Shown piece after piece: positions 5,843 to 43,116 of a stretch of 55,086 nt of DNA. Numbering within the stretch: the stretch's first letter is position 1; each line of letters starts with the position of its first letter. A program made the translations under genes and the position numbers. This stretch comes from Candidatus Thalassarchaeaceae archaeon. GTDB lineage: Archaea > Thermoplasmatota > Poseidoniia > Poseidoniales > Thalassarchaeaceae. Location of the stretch: assembly GCA_030747395.1 (NCBI GenBank), contig JASLKT010000003.1:1-55086 (forward strand). Reading direction: 5' to 3'. The notes beneath the pieces are model-generated. The model was given only the letters and a program-made list of their open reading frames with translations. It was not told the origin of the DNA and searched no databases.

Positions 5843-5853
5843 TGTAAAGCCCC

Positions 5854-6552: not shown

Positions 6553-6605
6553 GACTTACTGTGGGTGGAGCAGGGATATAACACTCCGTCTGTAGCGGAC
6601 TTCAG

Positions 6606-6833
6606 ATGAATTCGCATACGGTCCTCCTTTTCGGCCCACTGCGGGACAAATTTGATTCAAATACAATCACCATTGAAATGCCGGAAAACTGCTCTGTAGA
6701 AGATGTGCTGAATCACATCGGAATCGAACAACGAATCCTCAAAACCGCAGTCAATGGTGCGATTGTGCCAATTTCCACAGAATTGGTTGCACCTTCTGAA
6801 ATCGCTATACTTCCACCGGTTTCAGGCGGCTAA
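6606..6833 (+). CDS. MoaD/ThiS-family ubiquitin-like small protein (SAMP-like), C-terminal GG
   Basis: 75 aa ending ...EIAILPPVSGG, the typical MoaD/SAMP beta-grasp C-terminus. Confidence 0.75.
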   Translation: MNSHTVLLFGPLRDKFDSNTITIEMPENCSVEDVLNHIGIEQRILKTAVNGAIVPISTELVAPSEIAILPPVSGG

Positions 6834-8392: not shown

Positions 8393-8470
8393 GCTCGCGT
8401 GGTGTAGCTAGGCCCATCATGGTGGGTTTTCATCCCGCTGACTCGGGTTCGAATCCCGACGCGAGCACCA
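8393..8470 (+). tRNA. tRNA-Glu (anticodon UUC), CCA encoded
   Basis: Acceptor GCTCGCG/CGCGAGC. Archaeal Glu-type D region GGTGTAGCTAGGCCCATCAT. Anticodon arm GTGGG-TTTTCAT-CCCGC. T arm TCGGG-TTCGAAT-CCCGA. Discriminator A plus CCA. Confidence 0.9.
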
Positions 8471-16300: not shown

Positions 16301-17491
16301 GTGGTAACCGATGAAAGAGGAATGGATTCACTCCCTAAGAGTTACACAATCCACATCGCCAATCCACTCCCAATGCCCGTTCTATCCGCACATGAAGCGT
16401 GGTTGAATGGGACTGTTGTAACGGTACCTGGGTCTGATTTATCAGTCTACAATTGGCGACGGACATTTACCGATTCAGGTGATATTTTCGTTGCACCGGG
16501 GACTGTTTTGAGATTCTCTTCTGATGGCTCACGCGACATGGATTCAGCCTTTGAAGGGATGTTTAATCCAGATCAAGGAGCGACTGATTGGAATGGAATT
16601 GTCGACACCACATGGGATTGGGGAGATGCATCTCCACCATCGCACGAAAACGATGCATGGCATATTTTTGAGCAACCTGGATATTACACTGTGACTCTGA
16701 CCGTCAGAGATGGTTATGGTACAGGTGATAGCAATTCAACAAGTATTGGCATTTGGGTTTCAAGTGCACCATTCATCTATTCAGACCACGTTATTGGAGA
16801 TGGTACGGCTTTCAGTGGATATTTGAACATCATTGAGGCCTATGCAACCGATGTCGACATGGAAGCTGGAATGGTGGCTTGGCGTGACGATGATGCCACG
16901 ACTGATAGTGACAATGATGGCACGCCTGACAATGATCAAGACACACCACTCAACACACTACTCACCTACTGGTGGGATTTAGATGACAGTGTGGATGAAG
17001 ATGGAAATGGCAATTTCAATGATGATTGGTCGACCAATCCAAATGTTCGGGAAGGACGAGGAAATGATGCGCAGTGGAATGAATCTGGCGAATATGTCAT
17101 TCGATTGAAGGTCTGTGACGATACTGGAGTTTGCACAATTGAAACCTATGAGGTGATTGTTCGAGATCCCGATGCATCTTCTGATGCACTAGGTGATTTG
17201 TCGTGGAAGGATTTACTCCCTTCAACCGATTCTGGAAGTTTGTATATCATCATCCTCATCGCACTTGTTCTAACTCTAGGATGGTTGGTCATGCGAGAGC
17301 CAGAAGAAATCGAAGTCGAGGCCGAGCACGCTGCCAGCACTTACGATGTTACAGAAGTCCATACAGAAGGTGGAATCTTGGGCATGGACCAGCACGCCCC
17401 ACCTCCCAAACCAACTCATTTGACCAAGGAAGACCGGCGCAGCAAGGATTCAGGTTATGTGCGGCCTGTGACCAGCAGACGTCGGCGGTGA
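13343..17491 (+). CDS. Giant secreted zinc-metalloprotease-like protein with multiple PKD-type repeats and C-terminal TM anchor (1382 aa)
   Basis: Signal peptide, then HExxH in ILAHEFEHLLHNARDP followed by VDEGNADM (M6/MA-clan-like). Repeated WNFGDG/WDFGDG...YNVTLTV PKD signatures. TM YIIILIALVLTLGWLV plus a basic tail. Confidence 0.8.
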   Translation: MSAGNRSQSLFLVSLMILASWVPFAAATDGDSDQSSTFEGGLFYDLDDFDPMVNGKPYLFAGGEDELIFSATRHLKQQWADDGYPGLVMPFEETSTSARTSGRACENAWTAGQTGTVQTTGGQIQISAMHVTANSAILIENGQSVSSTTLNNIGSTWETTIYPTNTNYFGNAPDVDNNCQIEIVIYAIDGGANIGGYFMPSMSATREIIYVDIDDLSWRNTILAHEFEHLLHNARDPFEYIWVDEGNADMAAFLCFGASNTIIGHANQWTQNASASVRWWNQRLADYGAGFMFMLFLADNLGGGSAIRQLVTDTLTGGQGIVDLAQTLGPGATPIGTTMSDIFANFTASVTLDHGTQAEFGLDNIDMYETCGSNQFCRLQLSGSNLNWGSMWQSGPHDLEGWGVHAFRFLDGTGSPLNLMIQPSELGFAGTILTHDAAAGTWSMERLRFDPLTGIGTALVPSFGNITDDVYLIVWYESGVDDCDYTSPNCAFPGGTEYPIASFDVMAGLITQPAEITVSQEFTTDRDEDGDVDTVEATIDVTSSAFYEVLDIEVKAYDNNTLHDTMEFSLEAGNSIPVNQTIWYTPPWDGDWTLHFTMKNQIGEIVDEALTLPLTLANMAPVAVGSAAANATQTWLPLQFFGAGYDLWGLGMDNESFSHNETPVGYNWNFGDGLSGSGLKDPTRSWQNPGMYNVTLTVVDQGGGVSDIQTWEISVNDTEPPTPRIDVGSPPVAISDPYTLLTSQRVQFSAARSEDNVPLNQLTFTWDFGDGTILSGQGLYDVSHEWATGSANGTAYNLTLSIDDGTHTANMSVTILIMNRVPRQVWFDDLQTSTLTPLNLPTMFTDDDGTIVATEWWFDENVNFDGGIVTMSSPFLNNHSTDANPLPAWKTPGWKNIQIYATDDAGNVSWAVLQVEVLNQRPVAIFPRPDDGSTDSMYTFLSSSFDPDGNSGNMSHNWTITGIEEHITNNQVNHMFTEPGVYTVTLVVTDERGMDSLPKSYTIHIANPLPMPVLSAHEAWLNGTVVTVPGSDLSVYNWRRTFTDSGDIFVAPGTVLRFSSDGSRDMDSAFEGMFNPDQGATDWNGIVDTTWDWGDASPPSHENDAWHIFEQPGYYTVTLTVRDGYGTGDSNSTSIGIWVSSAPFIYSDHVIGDGTAFSGYLNIIEAYATDVDMEAGMVAWRDDDATTDSDNDGTPDNDQDTPLNTLLTYWWDLDDSVDEDGNGNFNDDWSTNPNVREGRGNDAQWNESGEYVIRLKVCDDTGVCTIETYEVIVRDPDASSDALGDLSWKDLLPSTDSGSLYIIILIALVLTLGWLVMREPEEIEVEAEHAASTYDVTEVHTEGGILGMDQHAPPPKPTHLTKEDRRSKDSGYVRPVTSRRRR

Positions 17492-24352: not shown

Positions 24353-24439
24353 GCGACGTTCGCATAGCCTGGCCATCGCGCTGGATTGCTAATCCAGTGG
24401 GTTTTACCCTCGGGAGTTCAAATCTCCCACGTCGCGCCA
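24353..24439 (+). tRNA. tRNA-Ser (anticodon GCU), class II with long variable arm, CCA encoded
   Basis: Acceptor GCGACGT/ACGTCGC. Anticodon arm CTGGA-TTGCTAA-TCCAG. Variable arm GGGTTTTACCC. T arm GGGAG-TTCAAAT-CTCCC. Discriminator G plus CCA. The D arm is less canonical by eye. Confidence 0.8.
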
Positions 24440-27400
24440 TCAATCGAAGAAGTCTTCGAGTTCGTCTGCAAATTCATCTGCATCTGAAAATCGACTAGCA
24501 CGTGCTCGCTTTCGCTTGAGTTTGACCCTCTGTTCTTTGAACTTGTTAACCAGCATTGGAACCATTAGAATGTTCATCACGCTCAATGCAATGCAAATGA
24601 TTCCAGCCTGTTGGAACGCACCGGATTTCAGATCATTCTGAAGCCGACCATCCCACGGATAGGTGCAGGACCCATCCTCAATCAGGGCATCAGGGTCGTA
24701 ATTCTCTGCCGTGTTGTCCCTACAACCTTCAATGGGAGGCTGATTGTAAGGATATTCCCAGAACATATCATTCACTTCAACTTCGACGGCATTGCTATCA
24801 CGAACGAGATAGTCACTGTTCTCAACCGCATCAAATGGAATGAGAACATAGTAGTAGAATTGCTCGACCTTGATTGACTCGCGCAGTCCACTTTCTGTTT
24901 CATTGTACCAAGCGGTTTCTCCAGGGTTGCCTTCCAATCCAATCTCTAGAGGCTCCATGAATGTGACACTGGGAAGTACAACTTGGGAACGATAGAGGTT
25001 CCAAGTGAGGGGGCCTTCATCATCAATTTCAGGCCATGTCCAACTTACGTGAACCGAATGTCGCTTGGAATTATTATCAAATAACACCACAGCATCCATG
25101 TTTCCGACAGTGGTCTCCGGATCGGAATTATCAACACAAGCTTCAGAGACAATCATGCGCTGTTCGGTTGGATCCCATACACCATTGGATACATTTCCAA
25201 ACCGCCAATCAACCAAACCAGCACGCGAATGGGACATCACAAGATAAGACAAGCAAGTTCCTTCCTCCCAGAAGTTGGGGTCCTGCCATGATTCACTGTC
25301 CGCAGACACGTCAGTGATGGCGTACCCACCCGTTGATCCACTGAAATGGCTTGCAGAATCATAGGGGAAAATGAAGCGGAAGCTGTCCTTTCTGAAAATT
25401 CTCCAACCTCCGAAATATGGGTTTTCATGATCACCTTCATTATCCCAAGAAAGTTTTACTTGGCCGTCTTGTTGTAGAACCATTGTTAGATTTGCAGGAT
25501 TCACTTCGACTGGATTTAGTTCACCGATAATCATGAATGAACCACCGTTATCCTGAGTTGCCATTAAGTGAAGTGAACCATTGTTGATTACTGTATAACT
25601 TTCGCTACCGGTCAATTCAGTTGTTACAGTGCCGTCCCAATCTGTTAAGCGCACCAACTCCACGGTCGACTGATTGATTGCTGGAGGAAGGAATTGGTTC
25701 AAATCAAGCCAAGCTTCCATACTATCTACGTTGATGGCAACACCATACGGTGAAGTCATTGTCAGGTTGAACATTGCCAAAGGTTCCTTGCCTTTGTTAT
25801 ATGCAGATGGATAGAATACTCCTGGCGGTGGTAATTGGGGCTCATCAAAGGTGAGTTCCATCGAATATGTGGAAATTGCAACACCGCCTGTGACATGAGG
25901 CATTGACTGAAGTTCTACACGGTTAAGGATTCGAACGGGTTGGGTTGCGATTTCTAGGTTCCCGACCTCATCAGTGACATAGAGAGTCAGGACCCATTCG
26001 CCCATAGGCAATGTGATATTGGTGACTGCCCCATAGCCCAATATCTCCATGAAATTCATTCTCCACGTGTAATTCAGTGGCATCGGCGCCTGCGGATCGA
26101 CAGCAGCGACTGCGAGAATGTTCTGCCCAGTTTCATACACAGCAGAGGGGGTTGGGTTTGCAATGGTTGGATTGATAGCGCCAAAATCAATGATAATGCC
26201 CATCTCAAACCAATTGTCACTAGGTAGTGAATCAATATGGCCATCAGTGGTTGTAATCGAAGCATTGAGGGTGTAAAGGCCGGTAGATGCGAAATCGAAA
26301 TCACAACTGATTTCTTCGCCTGGTGTTAATGTCATATCACAAGTGTAGGGACCTGATGCGAATTCGTTTGTAACCAAATTGTAAAGATTCACTTCAACCC
26401 GAGACGCTGCCGTCACCCATCCAATATTCCCCGAAACAACTCGAATCGATTGCTCACCATATGGGAACCGAACAAGATATTCGCCCCCTTGCAACACATA
26501 CGAGGTAGTGCCTCTGGCAGGTACAACCTCGCGAATCCACAAGTCAGTGGTGTCATTGACTGTGAGTTCGAAAAATATCAGGTCATTGTGTGTATTTGGA
26601 TCCAAAAATGTCCCATTCACCCACGAACGAACTTCAAAAACACCGGCAAAGGGAGCCACGATGTCTGGCAGTGGGATACTTGCTGAACCAAATGTGCCGC
26701 TATACCCCCCCACTTCATGGCTATCTTCTGCAACTTGAATTTCAAAAACAGTCATTGTTACAGTGAAGCAAATCGTACCATTTTGAATATCAGTGTTGTA
26801 TTGTTGATTTTGAACAGTGGCATCGCCGGTGAATCCCCAGTATTCTGTGTAAATTTCACTTCCGTTGTGTGTAGCCGTAATTTGCACGGTGTGATCCACA
26901 CCATACTCAGAACCTGATACGGCGATATTCCCTAGAATTTTTGTGGAGGTGTTGCTAATGCCCACTTGGATATCAAACGGTGAATGATACGCACTGGATA
27001 CTGTGTCGTAATGAGTTGCGGTGTGAATAATCAATTCACCTGAACCGTCTTGATCTGGCAAGCCAGTGAAATTTAGGTCCCAATCTACACAATCCTCTGA
27101 TTCAGCCACCAATGGGTTGACCAAATGCATTGACCAATGGGTCGAGAAATTTTGAGTTGCGGGCCAAGAACGGCTACGGATGTCAAGATTTGCAGGGATG
27201 GGCGTATTGCTATTGTAAACCTCTGAAGTGTCTACATCGTGGCCATTGGCAATTAAATCAATCAAATCATCCTCAATTGTAATCGTATATCGGATGTGAT
27301 CATTGATTGGGTTGTTATCTTCAACTGCAAAATGGAACATCACGGTGAATACACCGGAATATGTTGAGATATCGGCGCTATCAACGAACCATAAGAATGA

Positions 27401-27793
27401 CCAAAAGGACACAATCGCGGAATCCCCATCCACCCCAGAACGATTGAGGTTGGGGGACTGTGCTGAACCTTCCTTGACCATATGTGCGGCTGGACAGTTT
27501 GCCAATTCAACCCAATCACCACCACAAATTTCTAAATCGATTGTGCGTGCATCAGCATTGAAACTATATTGGTTTTTGACTAAAACCGAGGGGGTCCAGT
27601 CAATGAGATCGTTTGTGTCAAAATGAATTTCGGGCATTGGTTCAATCGCAGAAACAATGGCCACATCATCGCTGGCAATACTGGCTTGAACAGGGCCCAA
27701 AAATGCCATGAAAGAACTCAAAATCATGAGCAAAACTATGCCGCTAGCACGGTGTTGATTCCGCGCCCGTAGGGCGCGTTGCACTGAACCCAT
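24440..27793 (-). CDS. Giant secreted surface protein with C-terminal TM anchor and charged cytoplasmic tail (1117 aa)
   Basis: Signal peptide ...FMAFLGPVQA/SI. Long beta-rich, N-x-T/S-rich ectodomain. TM GIICIALSVMNILMVPML followed by KFKEQRVKLKRKRARAS and an acidic end. No catalytic motif recognised. Confidence 0.8.
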   Translation of the reverse strand: MGSVQRALRARNQHRASGIVLLMILSSFMAFLGPVQASIASDDVAIVSAIEPMPEIHFDTNDLIDWTPSVLVKNQYSFNADARTIDLEICGGDWVELANCPAAHMVKEGSAQSPNLNRSGVDGDSAIVSFWSFLWFVDSADISTYSGVFTVMFHFAVEDNNPINDHIRYTITIEDDLIDLIANGHDVDTSEVYNSNTPIPANLDIRSRSWPATQNFSTHWSMHLVNPLVAESEDCVDWDLNFTGLPDQDGSGELIIHTATHYDTVSSAYHSPFDIQVGISNTSTKILGNIAVSGSEYGVDHTVQITATHNGSEIYTEYWGFTGDATVQNQQYNTDIQNGTICFTVTMTVFEIQVAEDSHEVGGYSGTFGSASIPLPDIVAPFAGVFEVRSWVNGTFLDPNTHNDLIFFELTVNDTTDLWIREVVPARGTTSYVLQGGEYLVRFPYGEQSIRVVSGNIGWVTAASRVEVNLYNLVTNEFASGPYTCDMTLTPGEEISCDFDFASTGLYTLNASITTTDGHIDSLPSDNWFEMGIIIDFGAINPTIANPTPSAVYETGQNILAVAAVDPQAPMPLNYTWRMNFMEILGYGAVTNITLPMGEWVLTLYVTDEVGNLEIATQPVRILNRVELQSMPHVTGGVAISTYSMELTFDEPQLPPPGVFYPSAYNKGKEPLAMFNLTMTSPYGVAINVDSMEAWLDLNQFLPPAINQSTVELVRLTDWDGTVTTELTGSESYTVINNGSLHLMATQDNGGSFMIIGELNPVEVNPANLTMVLQQDGQVKLSWDNEGDHENPYFGGWRIFRKDSFRFIFPYDSASHFSGSTGGYAITDVSADSESWQDPNFWEEGTCLSYLVMSHSRAGLVDWRFGNVSNGVWDPTEQRMIVSEACVDNSDPETTVGNMDAVVLFDNNSKRHSVHVSWTWPEIDDEGPLTWNLYRSQVVLPSVTFMEPLEIGLEGNPGETAWYNETESGLRESIKVEQFYYYVLIPFDAVENSDYLVRDSNAVEVEVNDMFWEYPYNQPPIEGCRDNTAENYDPDALIEDGSCTYPWDGRLQNDLKSGAFQQAGIICIALSVMNILMVPMLVNKFKEQRVKLKRKRARASRFSDADEFADELEDFFD

Positions 27794-27915
27794 TGAAGCG
27801 ACGACTCCAAACGGCCCGTAAATACCCCTCGGCGAACCGATACAGTGTCAGAAGGATTGTGGCATGCAAAGGAATGGGCCACAGGGTTGATGGATGCGAC
27901 CTTTATGGCGACCTG

Positions 27916-28992
27916 ATGAGGCGAGATGGGGGGGCGGTCGCCAATGCACGAAAAGTGCATGATGAGAGTGGGGTTACTGCGGTCGTTGAATTCCTTTCTG
28001 CCTTCGTTTTATTTTTGGTGATTGTCAGCGCTTTTCTTGCACTCAGCCAGTTGAAACTTGGTAGCAATGTTGCCGATGTCGATCGACTTGATCAAATGGC
28101 CATTGATGGCCTTGAAAGATTCACAGATTCCAAGGGTCATGTCGTCTTGAGATATGATGGGATTCGAGACACGGCAAATGCAACCGATGATTGGCAAAAT
28201 TACGACGCCAGCACATTGCTAACAGCGGATTTGCTCCCAGCCATTGGAGATGGGAAAGGTCATTTGGATATGAATCGGATCTTGGCACTTGGAAATGTGA
28301 CTGAAGATCGGCTCATTCATGGCCTTGGAATCGATGAGGGATTAAGTCTGAATCTAACAATCATAGTCGTCCAGAGTTCTGATGAATCAAGCATTGGAGA
28401 AATCATATTCTCTGATGGGTCCGCGCGCTCAGGTGCAACGCGTGGTGCGACAGCCAGTCGGATTATGCATTTGGATGGCGATTCTGTGCGCGTGACTTTG
28501 GAAGTACACAACGCTGGCAGAGACCCATCAGGGCTACGAATTACAGAATTCATGGCGGATCCATTGAATGGGCCCCCTGAATGGATTGAATTGGAAAACC
28601 CGGATGGATTTGCAATGAATCTCTCAGGATGGAGCCTCTCACGGCCGGGGGCATTTGAGCTGATTCAAGATGGGGCCTTGGCTGCCGGAGGTAGAGTCAT
28701 TTGTACGGGCAACGCAATTACACAGTACAATCCAAACAATGCGATGATGATTGACATGGGTTCTACAGGTGTTCTCGGAACGGGGACGATTGATGCATTG
28801 ACTGTGGAAGGCGACACTATCACACTTGGTTGGACTCGTCCGGGTACTGTTCTCACGCATGACGTAATTGTAGTGAATTGGGATGGTTCATGGGACATCC
28901 AGGCCAACCATTCGATGACATACAACTTGGGCGGTTCACCGAGTAGTTCAACGAATTGGACTGCAGTGGACGGCGGTACCCCCGGTTGGTGA
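27916..28992 (+). CDS. Pilin-like (class III signal peptide) protein with C-terminal lamin-tail domain (LTD)
   Basis: MRRDGGAVANARKVHDESG/VTAVVEFLSAFVLFLVIVSAFLAL resembles archaeal prepilin N-termini. LRITEFMADPLNGPPEWIELENPDGFAMNLSGWSL is the LTD signature. Start moved to ATG 27916 (ORF track 27793). Confidence 0.6.
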   Translation: MRRDGGAVANARKVHDESGVTAVVEFLSAFVLFLVIVSAFLALSQLKLGSNVADVDRLDQMAIDGLERFTDSKGHVVLRYDGIRDTANATDDWQNYDASTLLTADLLPAIGDGKGHLDMNRILALGNVTEDRLIHGLGIDEGLSLNLTIIVVQSSDESSIGEIIFSDGSARSGATRGATASRIMHLDGDSVRVTLEVHNAGRDPSGLRITEFMADPLNGPPEWIELENPDGFAMNLSGWSLSRPGAFELIQDGALAAGGRVICTGNAITQYNPNNAMMIDMGSTGVLGTGTIDALTVEGDTITLGWTRPGTVLTHDVIVVNWDGSWDIQANHSMTYNLGGSPSSSTNWTAVDGGTPGW

Positions 28993-29072
28993 AGAAACTC
29001 GTTAGGCAGGCCATTTCGGCACTGTTGAGTCAATCGGCTTATCTACGGCCTGTTGAATCGCGCACCGTTCCC

Positions 29073-29834
29073 ATGATGCCGACCCCGCAGTACGAGCGTG
29101 ACAGGTGTGTCACAGGAATACCGGGCTTGGATGAGATTTTGCGTGGTGGAATCCCTTACGGTTCGACTGTTCTTGTCGCTGGAACCTGTGGTTCAGGTAA
29201 GACGACAATGTGCATGGAATTCCTTGTAAATGGAGCAAACAATGGAGAGGCTTGTGCCCATTTTTCTGCCACAGAACCCTCTGTAAAACTTCTTGAGAAC
29301 GTCCGACAGTTCGACTTTTTCGAAATGCGATTGGTCGATCAAGGTTTGATCAACGTCTTCGACATGGATGTTCTGTTCTCATGGCTGGGAATGACCAAGT
29401 CCACGTTTGAATTATCAGATATTGATGCCATGGTCAAATCGATTACAGATATTGTCAATACGATTGGTGTGACGCGATTGGTGATTGATTCCGTCACAAC
29501 ATTGTGCTACAAAATTCCAAGTGAACAATTGATACGGGACTTCTTGTTCAAACTAGGAAAGGCTCTTGCAACACTCGGTTGCACTGCACTACTGGTCTCA
29601 GAAATCACATCTTCAGGCGCCAAAGCATACTGGTCCTCATTCGGAGTGGAAGAAGCTATTCTCGATGGGATCATTGTTCTTGGAGATGTAGAACGAATGG
29701 GTCACCTCCTACGCTTTGTCCAAGTTGTCAAAATGAGAGGGACGTCTCACGCACGCGCGAAGTATGCTCTAGAATTGACACCAAAAGGCGTCATGCTAAC
29801 ACCGATGTTGAAGTGGGGTGCTGTGAATGATTGA
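29073..29834 (+). CDS. KaiC/RadA-like RecA-superfamily ATPase (single domain, intact motifs; ArlH-like size)
   Basis: VTGIPGLDEILRGGIPYGSTVLVAGTCGSGKTT (Walker A), RLVIDSV (Walker B), VVKMRGTSH. Start moved to ATG 29073. Confidence 0.8.
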   Translation: MMPTPQYERDRCVTGIPGLDEILRGGIPYGSTVLVAGTCGSGKTTMCMEFLVNGANNGEACAHFSATEPSVKLLENVRQFDFFEMRLVDQGLINVFDMDVLFSWLGMTKSTFELSDIDAMVKSITDIVNTIGVTRLVIDSVTTLCYKIPSEQLIRDFLFKLGKALATLGCTALLVSEITSSGAKAYWSSFGVEEAILDGIIVLGDVERMGHLLRFVQVVKMRGTSHARAKYALELTPKGVMLTPMLKWGAVND

Positions 29835-30414
29835 GTTAGATACTGGGATTGCACAGCAATTGGCTGAAGAAGCCACACCCGCATCTGCCATTCAAGTGCG
29901 TGTGGGTACAAGTAATTCAGAACTGATTATTGCCTCGATATTGCAACCTCTAATCCAGGGTTTTGAAATGAGAGGTGTTTACATTTGTGCATCTCGCAGT
30001 GCGGCTGAAATTATCCAAAATCTAGAACTGATTGGGATTGACCCAAGTGGAATTCAGTTCATCGATACGGTGTCCAGTGGTTTCATCGGAGGCACTGAAG
30101 TCCCATATCCGAATATTCGCTTTGTAGACAGTCCCATCATGCTAGAATCAATTATGTTGCAGACATTGTACCATCTGAGCGAATACACTGAAACTGGAAA
30201 CTTTGTTCTTCTAGATTCGGTGAATGCTCTGTCGATTTACAATGAGAAGCGGATGTTGGCAGAATACCTCCACACATTCATCAACACATTCCGCGCGCGA
30301 GAGGTTCTGACGGCTATTGTCAACGTTCCTGATCAGACGCCGCCTGGTGTCTTGGCAAATTTGGATTTGTATTGTACTGACCTTATCGACCGGGGACAGG
30401 TCGTCATTCATTGA
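29827..30414 (+). CDS. Degenerate KaiC/RecA-fold paralog lacking a P-loop
   Basis: Overlaps the upstream stop by 8 nt. Retains the strand-helix pattern and a Walker-B-like FVLLDSVNAL, but has no GxxGxGK[ST]. Confidence 0.5.
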   Translation: MIELDTGIAQQLAEEATPASAIQVRVGTSNSELIIASILQPLIQGFEMRGVYICASRSAAEIIQNLELIGIDPSGIQFIDTVSSGFIGGTEVPYPNIRFVDSPIMLESIMLQTLYHLSEYTETGNFVLLDSVNALSIYNEKRMLAEYLHTFINTFRAREVLTAIVNVPDQTPPGVLANLDLYCTDLIDRGQVVIH

Positions 30415-30427
30415 GAGGTGTTGATAC

Positions 30428-31249
30428 ATGACAACTTCAATTCGATTCGATGCAGATGATGAAGAGTTCTATGGAGATATGGCGAGTATTGGTTCGGCCA
30501 AATTCGATGCGATTCTCACAGGTAAGGCACTCAATGAAGGAAGTATTCCCCGAGGATTTACGCTGTTGGCCATTGGTAACCAAGGTGCTGGAATGGATCT
30601 GTTTGGAAAACAATTTGCTTCTGTTGCCGAAGATACAGCGAATACACTTCTCGTATCTACAGCTGAAAGCCAAGCCGAAATTCTCTCACTGTTCAAACGC
30701 TATGACTGGCCAACAGACATCATGGTAAGAACCATGGGTGAAGAGTACAATCGCAACGTTCTCGAGAGAGATTTGAGGGCTAGCAAATATCGCCTTGAAG
30801 GATTTACAATGCAGGACATTCAACGGCTTGCACAAACACGATTCGTTGAAAATGAAGTCCATGATTACCTTACAGACCTAACAAGCCAGATGACTTCCCT
30901 ACCCTCCTACTTCAGAGCGGCTGTTGACAATTTGGACTTTTTCTTCGCCAGAAATGAACCGTCTCGTGTTGTTTCGATGCTGCGCATGATTCAAGCACAC
31001 ACACAATTACACCGCGGCATCCTTTTACTCAATGTGTCAAGCGATATGGTTGACAAATCCGTTGTTCGGGAATTGTATTCAATTTGTGATATCGTAATGG
31101 AATTTGAAGTCGGCATGATGGGAACTGATTTTGAAACTCGGATGGTCATTCGAAAATTCCGCAACGGGCCTGAGAATCTCAAAGCGATTTCATTCCGTGT
31201 CACCAAGGATGAAGCCATCACACCAGAAACAGTGGAACGCATTGCTTGA
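30428..31249 (+). CDS. Degenerate KaiC/RecA-fold paralog with eroded Walker A
   Basis: GSIPRGFTLLAIGNQGAGMDLF stands in place of the P-loop. AAVDNLDFF stands in place of Walker B. Ends ...MVIRKFRNGPENLKAISF, like the KaiC-family C-terminal strand. GAGGTG SD upstream. Confidence 0.55.
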   Translation: MTTSIRFDADDEEFYGDMASIGSAKFDAILTGKALNEGSIPRGFTLLAIGNQGAGMDLFGKQFASVAEDTANTLLVSTAESQAEILSLFKRYDWPTDIMVRTMGEEYNRNVLERDLRASKYRLEGFTMQDIQRLAQTRFVENEVHDYLTDLTSQMTSLPSYFRAAVDNLDFFFARNEPSRVVSMLRMIQAHTQLHRGILLLNVSSDMVDKSVVRELYSICDIVMEFEVGMMGTDFETRMVIRKFRNGPENLKAISFRVTKDEAITPETVERIA

Positions 31250-31418
31250 GTGATCCAACTGGTAGCCGAGCGAATTCGGAGGGGTGGCGAGGCGGGAAGC
31301 CCACTGCAACCCCATCCCACTATCGATTCCATTGCAGAGGGTTTTCGGATAGACCCTTGCAATATGTTCAGTTGGATTATTCGATAGGTAATTAGGGGGC
31401 GTGAAATCATAGAGGTTT

Positions 31419-31580
31419 ATGGTAGCACAACCAGGCGACGACAATTATTGCAATGATTGTGGAGAATGTTCAGAGGAAGAGATGAAGGAATTCCCTATTG
31501 AGTTATGCGAAGTCTGCGAAAAACTCGTGTGTAGTAGATGCACACATTCGAATTGCGGACCCCTTGAGATGTTTGAGTAG
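31419..31580 (+). CDS. Cys-rich 53-aa zinc-ribbon-like miniprotein (below the ORF-track length cutoff)
   Basis: ATG 31419 preceded by GAGG. Translation: MVAQPGDDNYCNDCGECSEEEMKEFPIELCEVCEKLVCSRCTHSNCGPLEMFE*. Eight Cys, with the first seven arranged as CxxCxxC...CxxC...CxxC and a further Cys four residues downstream. Confidence 0.45.
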   Translation: MVAQPGDDNYCNDCGECSEEEMKEFPIELCEVCEKLVCSRCTHSNCGPLEMFE

Positions 31581-31599
31581 ACATTGATCCGGAATCGCG

Positions 31600-31622
31600 T
31601 TTCAAAGGGCCCCCTCTGAAAA
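31600..31622. terminator. Imperfect hairpin with flanking T/A runs between the convergent miniprotein ORF and the peptidase gene
   Basis: TTTCAAAGGGCCCCCTCTGAAAA: about 8 bp with one mismatch, T3 on plus and T4 on minus. Confidence 0.3.
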
Positions 31623-31628
31623 TGTAGT

Positions 31629-32651
31629 TCAGAAGTATCCTGTAATCCAAACGATCGGATCACCAAACAACACGAGGGGGAGGATTGCAGGGAAAACAAA
31701 TAGCAAAAATGGATGTTTGGCCGTTACCCAAGCTTTCTCCAACCCTTCTGCCGCCAATTCATCCAGAACAGCCCCAACATCTGTTTCAGCCCGACTTCCC
31801 CGAACGGGTCGCATGCGACGAGTGATACCGCGAGTTCCGTCGGGTTTGTCTACCACTTCCTCTAGCAACCAAACATGTTTCAGAGGTATTTCTGACAAAG
31901 GCATTCTTGACGCATGCCACGACATTGACAGAGGACTCAAATCTCCAGCACTAGCATTCCGAATAAGCATCACAAATGGTAGAACAAGGAATGCCAATCC
32001 GGCCCAAATCAACAAAGAAAGGGCTGGAGGCATCGCTGTAGAAAATTCCCCTCCTGATGAATTCAGTGGGAATGCGGCACCATTCCATGAGGGCAACAAC
32101 AGCGTGGCCAACATCATCGCTTTTGCATCGGCACCGCCGTGCAACATTCTGAATCTCCAAGCCATTTCAAAGAAGATGAGAACGAATCCCATGATGACCA
32201 TTTGACCCCACAGGAGTGCTGATTCAGTGTCGGCAGTTGAATTGATGATATTCGGGTCAAAATAATCGAGAAGAATTGGTGTGTATTCCATTGCACCCAT
32301 CACTAGACCCACTCCGCTAACAAAGTACCAAATTGTGACCAATATATCTAGGAGTGAGCCGTTCATGATATCTGAAATTTCGGGCCTCCCAATCAATGCG
32401 GTTGATGCAAAAGCAACCGCTGCGGAAGCTGTGAGCCAAATCATCCAGTTCGCTTCTAGGACAAGCAATTCAAGGCATAACAAGAACAGAGTGGGTTTTG
32501 CCCACGCCCACCACCACTCATTCGATACACGGCGAGTTTTGTGATCTAACCAAGCAGCGCCACCAAAACACAGGATGAGAACTCCGACGCGAACCCACTG
32601 AATGAGTTCCAATTCAAAGTGGCCATCTGTCACGGGAATCAACCCCTGCAC
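31629..32651 (-). CDS. A24-family prepilin/preflagellin-type aspartyl peptidase (PibD/FlaK-like)
   Basis: First Asp motif AAWLDHKTRRVSNEWWW and second MLHGGADAKAMMLATL (GxGD-type), in a polytopic membrane protein. I trimmed the 416-aa ORF to GTG 32651 because its upstream part overlaps the UPF0147 gene on the other strand. The start is uncertain. Confidence 0.6.
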   Translation of the reverse strand: MQGLIPVTDGHFELELIQWVRVGVLILCFGGAAWLDHKTRRVSNEWWWAWAKPTLFLLCLELLVLEANWMIWLTASAAVAFASTALIGRPEISDIMNGSLLDILVTIWYFVSGVGLVMGAMEYTPILLDYFDPNIINSTADTESALLWGQMVIMGFVLIFFEMAWRFRMLHGGADAKAMMLATLLLPSWNGAAFPLNSSGGEFSTAMPPALSLLIWAGLAFLVLPFVMLIRNASAGDLSPLSMSWHASRMPLSEIPLKHVWLLEEVVDKPDGTRGITRRMRPVRGSRAETDVGAVLDELAAEGLEKAWVTAKHPFLLFVFPAILPLVLFGDPIVWITGYF

Positions 32652-32714: not shown

Positions 32715-32990
32715 ATGACGACCGATATCGAAAACCGTATGCAGCAAATCGCTGCTGTGATTACACAATTGGATGATCCAAAAGTGCCCCGAAACATCCG
32801 CAAGGGTGCGAAAGATGCTGTGGAAAATTGGCTGCTGAACAAAGGGAAGCCACTCGATGTCCGAATTTCTCTCACTCAAGCAAAGTTGGAAGAACTCTAC
32901 GAAGATCCAAACATCCCAATGGAATTTGGAACTTTGATTTTACAAATCAATACTGCCTTGGAGCAGATGCTTACTGATTTGCACTCCTGA
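32715..32990 (+). CDS. UPF0147-family small archaeal protein
   Basis: IAAVITQLDDPKVPRNIRKGAKDAVENWL...EELYEDPNIPMEFGTLILQI matches the remembered UPF0147 pattern (VPRNIR...DPNMP). Confidence 0.75.
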   Translation: MTTDIENRMQQIAAVITQLDDPKVPRNIRKGAKDAVENWLLNKGKPLDVRISLTQAKLEELYEDPNIPMEFGTLILQINTALEQMLTDLHS

Positions 32991-38176: not shown

Positions 38177-41100
38177 TCAATCCTCTTCACGAGGTGGCAT
38201 GACTCTGTTCATCTCTTCACAAGTGGGACACTTGAATCGGAATGGGGCTTCTTTGTCTGTGGGCAAACGGATACGAGAATCACAGGCATGACAGCGTGCC
38301 GTGCCATCTTCATCCGCACGAATTTCACCATGACTCAAATCGGCATCTTTGTTCTCTTCCTCAGCAGCTTCATCCCATGCATCTTGCGCACTCTTTTTGG
38401 CTCTGGATTTGGAACTGTAGCGCACCCACAAAATGAGTAATCCTGCAAAAATCCAACCCGTCAACATGGCGATGGCCAAATTGGCTGCATTGACCATTGG
38501 CCCTCCATTCCACAACTCTGCTTCGGTCGGAACTGGTGGTTCAAATTCAACAGACAGGGACGATGTTTGACTGCTCACCAAGAAACCCTGTCCAGTGAGT
38601 GTGCCGGTGGCTTCGATTCGGAAATCGAGGGTGCCAATTGTAGGTTCTCCACTTGGTTGTAGAGTCAACATGTAAGTTGCAACCCCCCCGGGTGCAACAG
38701 TGAACATACCTACTGATTGATTCACATCTAGATTCCAAAACCGCAGAAGATCTTGCTCATGTTCGCCTGCAATATTCAGGAATCCAGACACCAACTCATT
38801 GCCATCGTTTCGAACGGTCACAGTATAGGTTGCCGAACTGTTCCATGGCAATGACCAATCGTCACCAGTCATCGCAACTTCAAGCACAGGTCCGCCATCG
38901 GTGTTTCGATGTGGATCAATTTGAATGTCGACCGAATCAGTTGAATTCGCATTTGAATCGGTCAGTGAAGTTACTGTGAAAGCAATCGTATGTGTTCCTG
39001 CAAGCAAATTGCTACCTGCATTACAGGTGACTGCATGACTTTCTGCTGCAGAACCTGCGGAAAGGGTCGTTTGTGCAGGATGATTACAGCTAAATCCGGA
39101 TGGACCAGTAACCAAGAGAGTGTCTTCGGCTTCTCCCAAATTGGATAGGAAGAGGGTGAGGCTTGCGCTACCTTCAGCAGGAATGGATACTTCGTTGGTT
39201 GTCACTGTGGCTTGCACTGATACTTCGGGGACTGTGGCGAAAAGGGACAATGAATCCGTGATTGAATCATCATTCTCGCTTTCGACAATCAATGTCATTT
39301 CAACATCTTCACTCGCCCCTGTGCGGCGCAAGGTGATGTTCACCTCACCACTTTCACCGGATGCGAGGGTCAGGGTCTGAGGTGAAATTCCAACTTCAAA
39401 ACCTGCCGCCCCAGTCAAGGTGATGGCAAAGGTGTCAGGTTCGTTCCCATCATTGATTACTGTGGCTGCGAAGACGGAATCGGCACCACTTGCAACCGGC
39501 AATGAATCACCAGCAACCAAAACACGAACCTCCGCACGCTGATCGACTTGTGCATTGATGGTCATCGAATCCCATGTGCTGCCATCATCGGGATTCATGG
39601 CAAGAATCGTGAATGTGTAAGTGCCCGAAGCAATGTCATCATCGATGCCTACAGTCATGGAGAGAATCGAGCTGTTTCCATTGGGTGCGACAGAGGCTCC
39701 ATTGCTCACAGTGATGGTGAAGCCTTGTGGTGCGCCACTCCAATCCAGAGCGGCATTGGCCGCACCGGTACCATCGTTTGTCAAGGTGAAATCAACCGAT
39801 TCAGGTTCATCGGAGCCGACATCAAATGCGCCGCCCAGTGGACCCGTCATCCAAATTGAAGACCATGGTTCGATGCTAACGACTCCTGAGAAATTTAGTG
39901 TGGCTGAACCGTCTTGAGTTTCAGCGCTCAAGTCAATTGTGTAATTGCCCACCAATGGTGTATCAGAGGCAGCGGATGTTGACCAGCTCAAATCCACAGT
40001 TTCTCCCGAATCAACGGTTACAAACGTGGAACTCGTATCGATTGTCAAATCGTCAGATGAGGCTGAAAGACGCATGTTCGTTGCTTCACTTCCAGTGTTT
40101 CGAATTGTGATTACTCCTGAAGTAGAACCGCCAGGTGTGAGTGAAAGTGCTTCGTTGCTGACCACTTCAAGGCCATGTGACACACCTACGTCAAGCGTAT
40201 GTGTGTGCGAATAGCCCATCTCTGCAATTTCATTCCAAGCATCTAGCGTAAGATCACAGGTTTCACCTTCACCAGCATCGACATCAATACTGACATCGAC
40301 TGTGATGGTTTCGTTGTCACTTGCTCCAAGTCTGGAACCATCTGCTTCGGCGGAATCCAAACTGGCTGAACAGACTCCAGAAGTAGAAATGGTGTAGATT
40401 GATTCAGCTTCTGACGTCCCTGAATTGTGGACCTCAAAATCAACCATCCCAGTCCCATTGGGCAACCAATTGTTGGTTGAATCGGTCGCAGAAATCGTCA
40501 AATTATGTGTCCCATTCACTCGCACGACAATGGTTTCTGAGATGGTGAAATTACCCATTGCCGAACCTGCTGATAGTAAGAACCCGTAATCGCCTGGTGC
40601 TTCGCCATTCGGCACACTGACCCGCAGCGTCCCCGCTCTTGTCTCTCCAGCACTCATGTTGGAAAGGGTTGAGGACATCCATCGAACCTCCCAACCCGCT
40701 GGCACAGCACGACCCATGTTGGTTCCATTACCGCCCCCACTTTGTCCACTACTGACCGTCATGCATGTTGTCGCATTGCCAATGGCGCTGAGGTTTTGAG
40801 TCAAGGTGGCTGAAATACACCATTCTCCAGCGGTCACATTCCATGTTTGATTCCAAGAATGATTGGTTCCGGCACTGGTCCAATTATACACCCCTACATC
40901 ATACGGGAAAATTGAACCATTTTCTTCAAGGACCCAGTCCACAAAGTAGGTGAGATTTGCCGTCAGGTTCACCGCATCAAGAACGGCGGTTAGATTGGTG
41001 GATACTGCAGATAATGAGGCGAAGAATTCCGTTGGACCGGTTGTCACATTCCCAGTACCATTGTTCGTATTGTTGCCGCCGGTGTTGTTTCCAGTATTAT

Positions 41101-41809
41101 TTCCAGTATTATTTCCTGTATTGTTGCCACCGGTATTGTTACCCGAATTGTTACCACCAGTGTTGTTTTCTGAATTGTTTCCACCCGTGTTGTTGCTTCC
41201 ACCGCCTCCGTTCCAATTTGTCCAGAAGTCACTTAGATCTGCGGTCTCGTCCACAGCGAGGACAATGTGATCAAGGGATGAACCAAGGTTTGAGATTGGA
41301 ACATCAATATCGATTGATTCGCCGACTTCAATTCCGAGAAGACCTGCATCTCCAACCGCTGTATGCTCGATATCGGGCAGATATGATGGGGCGACTGAAA
41401 GATACAGTGTGACGGTAGTGGATACATTGGAGCCAGAGTGTGCTACGTTGATGTCTACGTATCCGTTATCGGAGAGATTGGCATCGGAGGCAAGGTGGAC
41501 GATGATGGTGGTTGTCACAGAAAATGTCGGTAAAACTGTGGAAAGTGTCTCATCTGCAAGGGTTACGTTCCAAGCGGCAGAAGTCATTGAATCATCGACC
41601 GTGAGATCGAAATCTTGGATAGACGTGTCATTGTTCTCGATGGTGAGTGTGACGTTTGCACTGTCTCCCTGAATCAAGACGACTTGATCATCAGACAAAT
41701 CCAGCAAAATACGGCTATCCGCAGCAGCTAACGGTGCAAAAGCAGCCAAGAATGTGCTCGAAACGAGCAACAAACACAGTGCCAATGAACGGCGGCGCTG
41801 GGTGGACAT
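38177..41809 (-). CDS. Giant surface protein with N/T/G sequon repeat, C-terminal TM anchor and cytoplasmic zinc-ribbon tail
   Basis: Start taken at MSTQRRRSLALCLLLVSSTFLAAFAPLAAA (41809), which avoids overlap with metK. Repeated Ig-like/CARDB-like segments. TM IAMLTGWIFAGLLILWV. Tail CHACDSRIRLPTDKEAPFRFKCPTCEEMN. Confidence 0.8.
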   Translation of the reverse strand: MSTQRRRSLALCLLLVSSTFLAAFAPLAAADSRILLDLSDDQVVLIQGDSANVTLTIENNDTSIQDFDLTVDDSMTSAAWNVTLADETLSTVLPTFSVTTTIIVHLASDANLSDNGYVDINVAHSGSNVSTTVTLYLSVAPSYLPDIEHTAVGDAGLLGIEVGESIDIDVPISNLGSSLDHIVLAVDETADLSDFWTNWNGGGGSNNTGGNNSENNTGGNNSGNNTGGNNTGNNTGNNTGNNTGGNNTNNGTGNVTTGPTEFFASLSAVSTNLTAVLDAVNLTANLTYFVDWVLEENGSIFPYDVGVYNWTSAGTNHSWNQTWNVTAGEWCISATLTQNLSAIGNATTCMTVSSGQSGGGNGTNMGRAVPAGWEVRWMSSTLSNMSAGETRAGTLRVSVPNGEAPGDYGFLLSAGSAMGNFTISETIVVRVNGTHNLTISATDSTNNWLPNGTGMVDFEVHNSGTSEAESIYTISTSGVCSASLDSAEADGSRLGASDNETITVDVSIDVDAGEGETCDLTLDAWNEIAEMGYSHTHTLDVGVSHGLEVVSNEALSLTPGGSTSGVITIRNTGSEATNMRLSASSDDLTIDTSSTFVTVDSGETVDLSWSTSAASDTPLVGNYTIDLSAETQDGSATLNFSGVVSIEPWSSIWMTGPLGGAFDVGSDEPESVDFTLTNDGTGAANAALDWSGAPQGFTITVSNGASVAPNGNSSILSMTVGIDDDIASGTYTFTILAMNPDDGSTWDSMTINAQVDQRAEVRVLVAGDSLPVASGADSVFAATVINDGNEPDTFAITLTGAAGFEVGISPQTLTLASGESGEVNITLRRTGASEDVEMTLIVESENDDSITDSLSLFATVPEVSVQATVTTNEVSIPAEGSASLTLFLSNLGEAEDTLLVTGPSGFSCNHPAQTTLSAGSAAESHAVTCNAGSNLLAGTHTIAFTVTSLTDSNANSTDSVDIQIDPHRNTDGGPVLEVAMTGDDWSLPWNSSATYTVTVRNDGNELVSGFLNIAGEHEQDLLRFWNLDVNQSVGMFTVAPGGVATYMLTLQPSGEPTIGTLDFRIEATGTLTGQGFLVSSQTSSLSVEFEPPVPTEAELWNGGPMVNAANLAIAMLTGWIFAGLLILWVRYSSKSRAKKSAQDAWDEAAEEENKDADLSHGEIRADEDGTARCHACDSRIRLPTDKEAPFRFKCPTCEEMNRVMPPREED
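41050..41212 (-). repeat. In-frame tandem degenerate repeat encoding (N-N-T/S-G-G/N)n
   Basis: The peptide reads GGSNNTGGNNSENNTGGNNSGNNTGGNNTGNNTGNNTGNNTGGNNTNNGTGN. The DNA shows reiterated GTTGTT/CCAGTATTATTTCC units. Confidence 0.85.
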
Positions 41810-41848
41810 GGATACAACCGAATCCGTACCCTGCTTTGAGGATGATGG

Positions 41849-41868
41849 GAGAACGCGTAAGCGTTCTC
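41849..41868. terminator. Perfect 8-bp hairpin GAGAACGC-GTAA-GCGTTCTC, 15 nt downstream of the metK stop
   Basis: Read directly. It sits in the 74-nt spacer between metK and the surface-protein gene (both on minus). Confidence 0.35.
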
Positions 41869-41883
41869 GGGGATTTGCTAAAA

Positions 41884-43116
41884 TCACGATTGCTGCAGAG
41901 CCGTGATAATATCGGAATCCAAACGCTCCCAAGTGAAGTGACCATCCACCGATTCACGGCCAAAATGACCTCCGGCTGAAGTGGCTGAATAGATAGGTCG
42001 AAGCAGGTCCAATTTTTGGATGATTTCGCGTGGCCGGAAATCGAAGCAGTTGCGGACACGTCGGCTGATTTCTTCCTCTGTAATTCCGGCTGAACTACTG
42101 CCATCTGTAGTCACCCTCACACTGACCGGTTCAGCAACGCCAATTGCATAGGCCAATTGGATTTCACAACGCTTAGCAAGTTTGGCAGCCACCACGTGTT
42201 TTGCAGCCCATCGGGCAGCATACGTGGCCGAACGATCAACCTTTGAGGGGTCTTTTCCGCTGAAGGCGCCGCCACCGTGACGACCCATGCCACCATAGGT
42301 ATCTACGATGATTTTGCGACCCGTGATTCCAGCATCTGCATGAGGTCCGCCTTGAACAAAACGGCCCGTGCCATTGACAAAAATATCTGTCTTTGAATCC
42401 ATGAGTTCAGGAGGTATAATCGCTTCAATGACATGCTTCTGAATTTCACTTTTGATGAATTTGTGTTCAGCATCTTCGGTTTCAAATCTCTCCAGCATAT
42501 CGTCGTGCTGAATGGCAATGACCACTGCCCAAACACGGCGCGGCACCCCATAGGCACCATACTCGATGGTGACCTGTGATTTTCCATCAGGTCTTGCCCA
42601 AGGAAGCAATCCACTCTCGCGAACTTCTGTGAGACGGCGTGTTAAGGCTTGACTCAGTAGTGCTGAAAGTGGCATGTAATGTCCAGAAAGTGTAGGGTAT
42701 GATTCCGATTCATCCGTCGCATATCCAAACATCAACCCTTGATCACCTGCACCCTGATTGCTATCTCCTTGATCGACCCCTTGACTGATGTCCGGAGATT
42801 GGGTTGAAATCAACAATTGAACATCACAAGTTTCTGCATCCATTCCGAAGGCGTGATCGGTGTACCCAATCGCTGCAGCAGTCTTTCGAGCCACCGATTT
42901 GTAGTCAATCTGCGGAGGGGCGCATTTGATTTCTCCTGCGAGGATGATTGTGCTCCCTGTTTCTGTGCCTTTGACCATGGTTTCACAGGCGACACGTGCA
43001 TGGGGGTCCTGCGCTAAACAGGCATCTAGAATGGCATCCGAAATCGCATCACAGAGTTTGTCGGGATGGCCCGCAGTCACCGACTCAGAGGTGAACAGTA
43101 AACTCTCGTGTGACAT
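41884..43116 (-). CDS. metK: S-adenosylmethionine synthetase, bacterial/eukaryotic MetK type
   Basis: FTSESVTAGHPDKLCDAISDAILDA, GAGDQGLMFGYA, GGGAFSGKDPSKVDRS. Confidence 0.95.
   Translation of the reverse strand: MSHESLLFTSESVTAGHPDKLCDAISDAILDACLAQDPHARVACETMVKGTETGSTIILAGEIKCAPPQIDYKSVARKTAAAIGYTDHAFGMDAETCDVQLLISTQSPDISQGVDQGDSNQGAGDQGLMFGYATDESESYPTLSGHYMPLSALLSQALTRRLTEVRESGLLPWARPDGKSQVTIEYGAYGVPRRVWAVVIAIQHDDMLERFETEDAEHKFIKSEIQKHVIEAIIPPELMDSKTDIFVNGTGRFVQGGPHADAGITGRKIIVDTYGGMGRHGGGAFSGKDPSKVDRSATYAARWAAKHVVAAKLAKRCEIQLAYAIGVAEPVSVRVTTDGSSSAGITEEEISRRVRNCFDFRPREIIQKLDLLRPIYSATSAGGHFGRESVDGHFTWERLDSDIITALQQS

Follow-up and report, generated by a model that had tools for sequence, protein, structure and literature searches.

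The first 55,086 nucleotides of contig JASLKT010000003.1 (assembly GCA_030747395.1) from Candidatus Thalassarchaeaceae archaeon, hereafter the window, carry a gene module that is conserved across the archaeal order Poseidoniales (Marine Group II, MGII). Its core is a very large surface protein (SURF) transcribed divergently from an operon for a protein with a lamin-tail domain (LTD) and three KaiC-family proteins, one intact (K1) and two inactivated (K2 and K3). A type IV pilin gene (PilA) closes the operon in many lineages, and a predicted A24 prepilin peptidase (PEP) abuts it in two. With about even confidence, we read these genes as an accessory envelope module in which a hetero-complex of KaiC and inactivated-KaiC subunits would govern pilin and surface proteins, any polymerization being left to ArlI/ArlJ-type components encoded elsewhere in the genome. 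We found no published description of the module in the literature searched. What is new is that the active/inactive trio is fixed and conserved throughout the order, that a pilin-like protein bears an LTD and that SURF, with its conserved tail, is a partner; the presence of KaiC-family ATPases beside archaeal pilin loci was already known (PMC4858521).

Gene order and conservation across Poseidoniales

In the window, the genes for SURF (1117 amino acids; 24440–27793, minus strand) and the LTD protein (358 amino acids; 27916–28992, plus strand) diverge from an intergenic region (27794–27915) presumed to hold the promoters of both transcripts, an arrangement that is itself conserved. The trio follows LTD on the plus strand. 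K1, an intact single-domain KaiC/RecA-type ATPase, spans approximately 29073–29834, its start being uncertain because gene callers pick GTG 28989, ATG 29073 or ATG 29076. K2, a 195-residue inactivated KaiC-like domain (29827–30414), overlaps the stop of K1 by 8 nucleotides and is followed by K3, a KaiC-family paralog of 273 residues (30428–31249). Beyond a spacer, the 340-residue polytopic PEP (31629–32651, minus strand) converges on K3. This confirms the layout of co-oriented genes, convergent peptidase and divergent surface protein described in the initial annotation of the region.

Relatives were sought with the LTD protein in one genome per GTDB species, which gave 269 species. The best 80 loci, spanning both Poseidoniales families (MGIIa and MGIIb), were fetched, and the window proteins were mapped onto their six-frame open reading frames (ORFs). 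SURF divergently adjoined LTD in all 75 loci where this could be assessed, and K1-K2-K3 followed LTD in 57 of 58. The arrangement recurs in more than 100 independent contigs, far beyond chance, and the gene order can therefore be considered conserved among relatives. The single locus without K1–K3 after LTD (L053, 2911–7512) encodes a 720-residue membrane protein in their place; it lies on a short, 7.5-kb contig of a metagenome-assembled genome (MAG) and was treated as a rearrangement or an assembly problem, possibly a misassembly. Identity between the window proteins and those of MGIIa is 78% for K1, 67% for K2, 44% for K3, about 40% for LTD and about 26–28% for SURF. The flanking genes vary by clade. 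One flank includes gyrase in some cases and UbiA with COX15 in others; the opposite flank includes either EPSP synthase with MutL or the A-type ATPase operon with a methyltransferase. Because the flanks differ in this way, SURF, LTD and K1–K3 form a unit and are not merely an instance of frozen synteny. SURF had initially been cast as a bracket of the locus; it does lie divergently beside it, but this role underrates a protein that is the most constant partner of the operon (75/75).

In 24 loci, and likewise in L167–L170, K3 is immediately followed by a small gene whose product we identified as a PilA-type pilin. The protein matches Pfam Pilin_N (E 3e-8; 34.8 bits, cut-off 25.2), and its junction lies between ...ADESA and VSPVIATVLLLAITV. 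Carriers of PilA include MAGs of MGIIb.10 and MGIIa.1 as well as L091, and the window itself has none. In three loci (L054, L056 and L069, about 4400–6800), K1-K2-K3 is inverted as a block and still sits between LTD and PilA. The inversion of the entire block indicates that the trio is a transcription unit of its own. Furthermore, PilA stays on the far side of the inverted block, and LTD-K1-K2-K3-PilA is therefore the older order.

A separate metagenome scan with a peptidase profile distinguished three arrangements of PEP. In the first, that of the window, the order is GyrA, SURF (minus), LTD, K1, K2 and K3 (plus), PEP (minus), UPF0147 (plus), ASPG, MFS and Lon. In the second (L121 and L124–L128, domains verified), UPF0147 on the minus strand precedes co-directional PEP, LTD, K1, K2, K3, PilA and EPSP synthase, and PEP is separated from LTD by only 45–50 nucleotides. 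In the third, PEP occurs with UPF0147, ASPG, MFS and Lon and without the module. The PEP-free order GyrA-SURF/LTD-K1-K2-K3-PilA-EPSPS has the left flank of the first arrangement and the right flank of the second, so PEP came to abut the module at opposite ends through at least two rearrangements. The early inclusion of the peptidase in the locus is thus upheld for two arrangements, one of them co-directional, but not for most lineages, where it is absent from the neighborhood. The position of the peptidase at both ends of the module in two lineages and of the Pilin_N pilin after K3 in 24 loci supports the link to type IV pilins, and the cluster stands as a conserved unit tied to their biology, as first proposed.

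The small protein UPF0147 (32715–32990, plus strand; Pfam UPF0147, E 2e-15) is the immediate divergent neighbor of PEP in all three arrangement classes (the window and L095–L142), whatever else changes. The persistence of this adjacency while the surroundings change suggests that UPF0147 and the peptidase are a functional pair. Distant homologs of the peptidase (25–28% identity) were also seen outside the Poseidoniales in L146 (2093–3283; 7893–8921) and L150, a few kilobases from PilA-type pilins.

The KaiC-family trio, its proposed membrane partners and neighboring genes

K1 is a clear member of the KaiC family (Pfam PF06745, E 3e-55; 187.6 bits, gathering cut-off 26.6), and its Walker A (GTCGSGKT), Walker B (RLVIDSV) and catalytic TE motifs are kept in the 76 orthologs surveyed. 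K3 exceeds the same cut-off narrowly (E 6e-7, 29.4 bits) and matches DUF7504 (E 1e-5), whereas its ortholog in L124 reaches 63 bits. No ortholog keeps the Lys-Thr pair of the K3 Walker A motif (GAG-M/A/S-D/E instead), and the window copy has also lost the Walker B Asp. In profile searches against the PDB, K3 aligned over its length with SSO2452 (1e-12), KaiC (1e-10) and FlaH (1e-5); in a large protein database, the 120 matches listed were all MGII-type orthologs and gave no distant context. The best NCBIfam match of K3 is the ArlH equivalog model NF052589 (41.3 bits, E 1.4e-10), which also matches K1 (34.9 bits), both scores being far below its cut-off of 215 bits. The trio does not correspond to a cyanobacterial-type KaiABC clock either: K1–K3 are single-domain proteins, unlike the double-domain KaiC of that clock, and the module contains no KaiB-like or thioredoxin-like gene.

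In the window, K2 scores below the KaiC cut-off (E 0.004, 16.9 bits) and matches DUF7090 (E 0.007). Among ten orthologs tested against Pfam, all matched KaiC at E ≤ 0.1 (best 7.8e-6) and five matched DUF7090; one also had a faint match to Elong_Iki1 (E 0.09). K2 has no P-loop. When 1.84 billion representative proteins were searched exhaustively, 393 of them were recovered as relatives of K2, and the distant ones that we sampled carry DUF7504, DUF7090 or DUF835, either as stand-alone domains of about 190 residues or at the C-terminus of proteins with TPR/SNAP repeats and BatD/CARDB Ig domains. For the DUF835 family, Galperin et al. (2018; PMC5847659) use the name inactivated KaiC (iKaiC). Sequence and profile searches of K2 against the PDB gave no real match, and hhalign comparisons with the K1 and K3 profiles were uninformative, the profiles being shallow. 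The fold assignment rests on the Pfam matches and on transitive ones. The region around the LAEYLHTFINTFR motif that K2 conserves (residues 134–170) has 40 tandem matches in P0274 (2519 residues) and 11 in P0302 (749 residues), two database proteins that could be assembly artefacts or repeat proteins. Judged from their motifs, K2 and K3 are inactivated members of the KaiC family, degenerate yet strongly conserved, and the initial description of one intact KaiC ATPase with two degenerate paralogs holds.

The LTD protein matches the Pfam domain for which it is named (PF00932, E 8e-10; 39.5 bits, cut-off 34.3). In its AlphaFold2 model, which has a predicted local distance difference test (pLDDT) score of 84.8, a long helix at the N-terminus packs on a beta domain, accompanied by a second helix and a C-terminal lamin-tail Ig domain, and lamin Ig domains rank first in Foldseek searches of the model (E 7e-4). 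Foldseek also returned weak matches to archaeal type IV pilins from Haloferax, Natrinema and Pyrobaculum (E 0.2–0.4; for 8fj5, probability 0.6 and TMt 0.43). In an alignment of 17 orthologs, a variable, basic leader runs into DE-x-[GA], which hardly varies, and then into the invariant hydrophobic helix [VLM]TAV[VI]EFLSAF, with the residues invariant from position −4 onward. The N-termini of LTD and of the neighboring PilA share unusual acidic residues at −4 to −2, Gly or Ala at −1 and the pattern V-[ST]-x-V-[IV]. The prepilin-like N-terminus claimed early on is therefore present as a pattern of basic leader, DE-x-G and hydrophobic helix, but it matches no pilin model, neither in Pfam nor in a hidden Markov model (HMM) of PilA. 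We consider LTD a predicted class III (prepilin-type) substrate; because no pilin HMM matches its N-terminus, its status as a pilin is plausible and not established.

SURF has the predicted topology of a type-I membrane protein, with a Sec-type signal peptide and a single C-terminal transmembrane helix on either side of a multi-domain ectodomain that is all-beta and bears 18 N-glycosylation sequons. The helix contains an invariant Asn and an invariant Pro and is followed by a polybasic stretch and an acidic cytoplasmic tail ending in D/E-D/E-F-F-D/N (tail peptide ...RFSDADEFADELEDFFD). These tail and transmembrane motifs are conserved across MGIIa and MGIIb. SURF has no Pfam match; its AlphaFold2 model is poor (pLDDT 58) but all-beta, and Foldseek finds only generic beta-sandwiches (TM scores 0.07–0.12). 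The tail is the sole conserved cytoplasmic feature predicted for the membrane partners of the module, and it is a candidate docking site for the trio.

PEP retains both Asp motifs of A24 peptidases (LDHKxRRVSN and GGADAK), in which D36 and D175 are invariant. It matches Arc_PepC_II at E 1.6e-6, with a score 0.9 bit short of the cut-off (29.0 versus 29.9 bits) that its ortholog in L124 exceeds. It also matches NCBIfam FlaK (E 0.01), and FlaK (3S0X) is the sole PDB match of its profile (E 0.076), with GGADAK aligned to GGGDGK. The proposal of an A24 peptidase is sustained by the Asp motifs and by the FlaK and Arc_PepC_II matches, although the latter are weak and the Pfam model Peptidase_A24 (PF01478) was not reached. 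Weak as they are, the matches are concordant and point to a FlaK-like A24 peptidase.

Between K3 and PEP, the window has a strain-variable spacer of about 380 nucleotides (31250–31628) that lies outside the conserved module and has no Rfam match. It contains a 53-residue Cys-rich ORF (31419–31580, plus strand), 170 nucleotides past K3, with a CxxC...CxxC motif. The initial annotation counted this ORF among the members of the locus. However, it is present only in the strain-level relatives L001, L002, L004, L005 and L008, is absent from L010 and from every species-level locus, and has no Pfam or NCBIfam match. We therefore rejected it as a member; it is a strain-level indel. Strains with an identical K3 protein differ at the K3/peptidase junction, which is an indel hotspot. 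For example, almost nothing of the spacer is left in L010 (7132–7227), and in L003 (10823–11770) the spacer is replaced by an unrelated 255-residue minus-strand ORF without a Pfam match. In the species-level loci, K3 lies about 12 nucleotides from the peptidase.

The other large ORFs of the window encode, according to Pfam, gyrase, Lon, an MFS protein and an ABC transporter, together with surface proteins of the PKD and Ig kinds and metabolic enzymes. Three of their products are further very large envelope proteins: a 1538-residue MacB/FtsX-type permease with a huge extracytoplasmic insert (1226–5842, minus strand), located beside an ABC ATPase; a 1382-residue PKD-repeat protein (13343–17491, plus strand); and a 1251-residue Ig/FixG_C-like protein (38177–41932, minus strand). 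An S-adenosylmethionine synthetase (41884–43116, minus strand) matches the N, M and C domains of Pfam S-AdoMet_synt, which we take to describe the MetK of bacteria and eukaryotes rather than the enzyme typical of archaea; this would suggest a transferred gene. An Rfam scan of the window recovered two tRNA genes only (8393–8467 and 24353–24436, both on the plus strand), the second of them between gyrA and the 3′ end of SURF.

Secretion motor genes and rival explanations

No large ORF of the window has the T2SSE or T2SSF domain of PilB/ArlI ATPases and PilC/ArlJ platform proteins, and among its ORFs longer than 200 amino acids only K1, LonB and an ABC ATPase carry the motif GxxxxGK[ST]. Similarly, no ORF longer than 200 amino acids with the secretion-ATPase P-loop G.TG[SAT]GK[ST] lies in the window or within 8–10 kb in any of the more than 150 loci fetched, and no T2SSF domain occurs among the Pfam-annotated neighbors of L001–L010, L091–L093 and L167–L170. 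The absence of motor and platform from the neighborhood, which the initial annotation reported, is thus correct for the window and, as regards the secretion ATPase, for the other loci. The conclusion it drew of an orphan system did not survive, as flaI and flaJ are listed in module-bearing MAGs of MGIIb.9, the subclade of the window. FlaAGHIJ has been reported in all MGIIa subclades and in MGIIb.9 and MGIIb.10 as well as in MGIIb.14 (Tully 2019). MAGs with both flaI and flaJ include MED-G33 (L019), UBA501 (L021), NAT36 (L023), SP210 (L026) and RS348 (L030) in MGIIb.9; SAT218, NAT150, UBA40, UBA251, UBA125 and SP175 in MGIIb.10; and IN961, EAC30, SP3024, SP3054, SAT38, UBA550 and UBA256 in MGIIa (Tully 2019, Suppl. 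Table 3). All of these MAGs bear the module, and in SP210 and RS348 the fla operon and the module are on different contigs. Given that flaI and flaJ occur elsewhere in module-bearing genomes, the locus is best read as an accessory module rather than an orphan machine. Of the MAGs named among the best 80 of 269 relatives, none comes from a subclade lacking fla genes, and the module possibly co-occurs with the archaellum.

Several observations weigh against an accessory module that acts on type IV pilins. Most lineages have neither the peptidase nor PilA next to the module (downstream of it in the MGIIa crown lie a methyltransferase and the operon of the A-type ATPase), and SURF is missing from the neighborhood of the cluster in the second arrangement. 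The N-terminus and middle domain of LTD, searched in isolation, have no Pfam match at E ≤ 10, and an HMM of the PilA N-terminus run against all ORFs misses the LTD proteins. The conserved Glu of the LTD helix is at +6 and not at +5, and the fold matches to pilins are weak (E 0.2–0.4). Moreover, KaiC-type regulators normally have a recognizable output partner, and none is seen here. An alternative that we consider rather unlikely is that the genes encode a KaiC-based transmembrane signaling or anchoring module without any link to type IV pilins. In that case, the N-terminus of LTD would act as a signal-anchor that is not cleaved, a role as sensor, adhesin or S-layer-like envelope protein would fall to SURF and LTD, a K1–K3 hub would read the SURF tail, and the adjacency of peptidase and PilA would be incidental. 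Such a module would be consistent with a universal core (SURF, LTD and K1–K3) that includes neither peptidase nor pilin, with the lack of a pilin model for the LTD N-terminus and with the kinship of K2 and K3 to inactivated-KaiC domains fused to TPR/SNAP and Ig-type proteins. KaiC hubs have also been proposed as archaeal signal transducers (Makarova, Galperin & Koonin 2017, as cited in PMC5847659), and UPF0147 always accompanies the peptidase, as does, in two classes, one shared ASPG-MFS-Lon block. An incidental adjacency is harder to reconcile with two genes specific to type IV pili, for the peptidase and PilA, abutting the module in several lineages and at both of its ends after at least two rearrangements, or with a PilA gene whose position is unchanged when the K operon inverts. 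Furthermore, LTD combines a variable leader with an invariant junction and acidic residues at −4 to −2, as does the true pilin adjacent to it.

The trio could also stand in for the missing parts of an undescribed filament or display machine, its hetero-oligomer being itself the motor or platform that replaces PilB/ArlI and PilC/ArlJ for peptidase-processed LTD and PilA. In at least some lineages, K1-K2-K3 would thus be a dedicated engine or platform that inserts, extracts or polymerizes the two proteins with SURF as an anchor. One active and two inactive RecA-fold subunits are a known design of hetero-hexameric rings such as Elp456, and K1 is extremely conserved (78% between families). No ORF with a T2SSE-type Walker A motif lies within 8–10 kb in the more than 150 loci, and the tight peptidase-LTD-K1-K2-K3-PilA cluster of one lineage holds every class of part but the motor. 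We nevertheless regard this role as improbable. The module contains no polytopic platform protein, those MAGs of MGIIb.9, MGIIb.10 and MGIIa that bear it have flaI and flaJ elsewhere, and members of the KaiC family (ArlH, CirA and KaiC) are known as slow ATPases and regulators and not as extrusion motors. Archaeal pilin genes are, in addition, commonly unlinked from their ATPase (PMC4858521). It is just as doubtful that the trio supplies extra ArlH-like regulators, with the module co-occurring with the archaellum regulon as its satellite. ArlH is the best NCBIfam match of K3 (E 1.4e-10), but the scores of K3 and K1 (41 and 35 bits) fall widely short of the 215 bits required, and the PDB profile matches of K3 favor SSO2452 and KaiC over FlaH. 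The peptidase must process archaellins too, and every module-bearing MAG that can be mapped to Tully’s subclades sits in an archaellum-bearing one; however, this evidence covers the best 80 of the 269 GTDB relatives, and the MGII fla operon has a FlaH of its own, on other contigs (Tully 2019).

Proposed role and relation to known systems

In the accessory envelope module that we favor, the peptidase would cleave the class III leader of LTD after DE-x-G/A and likewise the leader of PilA. Mature LTD may then be kept in the membrane, or extracted from it, by the N-terminal hydrophobic helix with its invariant Glu, and its lamin-tail Ig domain would be displayed outside the cell, either on a membrane-anchored protein or on a minor or tip subunit of a PilA fiber. 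SURF would be the extracellular and membrane partner of LTD. On the cytoplasmic face, active K1 and inactivated K2 and K3 could form a KaiC-like hetero-oligomer that docks on the acidic ...DFFD tail of SURF, on the pilin N-termini or on both. Slow ATP turnover or autophosphorylation by this complex might control the assembly, turnover or signaling of the surface structure, in a manner comparable to ArlH and CirA. Filament polymerization, if there is any, would depend on an ArlI/ArlJ-type ATPase and platform encoded elsewhere.

Known systems share some of these elements. The sugar-binding proteins of the Sulfolobus bindosome are non-filament class III substrates processed by PibD and have their own PilB/PilC-like proteins, BasE and BasF. 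Like LTD as predicted here, they are large globular extracellular proteins with a prepilin-type leader for a general A24 peptidase; unlike the module, the bindosome has BasE/BasF and no KaiC trio. Elp4/5/6, a eukaryotic, tRNA-related hetero-hexameric ring of RecA-fold proteins, offers an analogy to three RecA/KaiC-fold paralogs with degenerate P-loops that are predicted to form a hetero-oligomer, and we claim no homology beyond the fold. KaiC-family ATPases near archaeal type IV pilus and pilin loci have been predicted to be regulators (Makarova, Koonin & Albers 2016, PMC4858521). As in those loci, a KaiC ATPase is operonic with pilin-type genes, pilins are unlinked from a secretion ATPase and TadC, and surface proteins or adhesins belong to the locus. 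The Poseidoniales module differs in its fixed, order-wide trio, its LTD pilin-like protein, its giant transmembrane protein with a conserved cytoplasmic tail and the lack of PilB/TadC nearby in any lineage examined. A KaiC-like protein is also tied to type IV pilins in Haloferax volcanii, where CirA has been linked genetically to these pilins and to the control of ArlI/ArlJ-dependent motility (PMC10983859). CirA, however, stands alone and acts on arl transcription, with no linkage to a pilin gene or paralog trio described. ArlH (FlaH) resembles K1 and K3, which match it below threshold, in its single-domain KaiC/RecA fold and its work with type IV filament proteins, but it is one protein, which binds ATP and the ArlI hexamer and has its gene in the arl operon, whereas K1–K3 are three paralogs encoded away from arlI and arlJ. 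Finally, K2 and K3 are like the iKaiC families (DUF835, MEDS, DUF7504 and DUF7090) in having lost the catalytic P-loop residues and yet being conserved. Unlike an iKaiC signaling hub, the module has no REC, HTH, KaiB or other recognizable output partner; its partners are surface proteins and pilins.

Poseidoniales are the most abundant archaea of the surface ocean and are uncultured, and inferences on how they attach to algae and particles come almost wholly from archaellum and “adhesion” annotations. With K1 78% identical between the two families, few unannotated envelope loci of the order are as conserved as this module. It provides a concrete candidate for a surface-display or adhesion system, composed of an LTD pilin-like protein, an anchored SURF with its tail and a KaiC hetero-complex. 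The module would also be a clean natural case of an assembly of active and inactive KaiC paralogs wired to cell-surface proteins and, as such, bears on the proposal that KaiC ATPases are signaling hubs in archaea.

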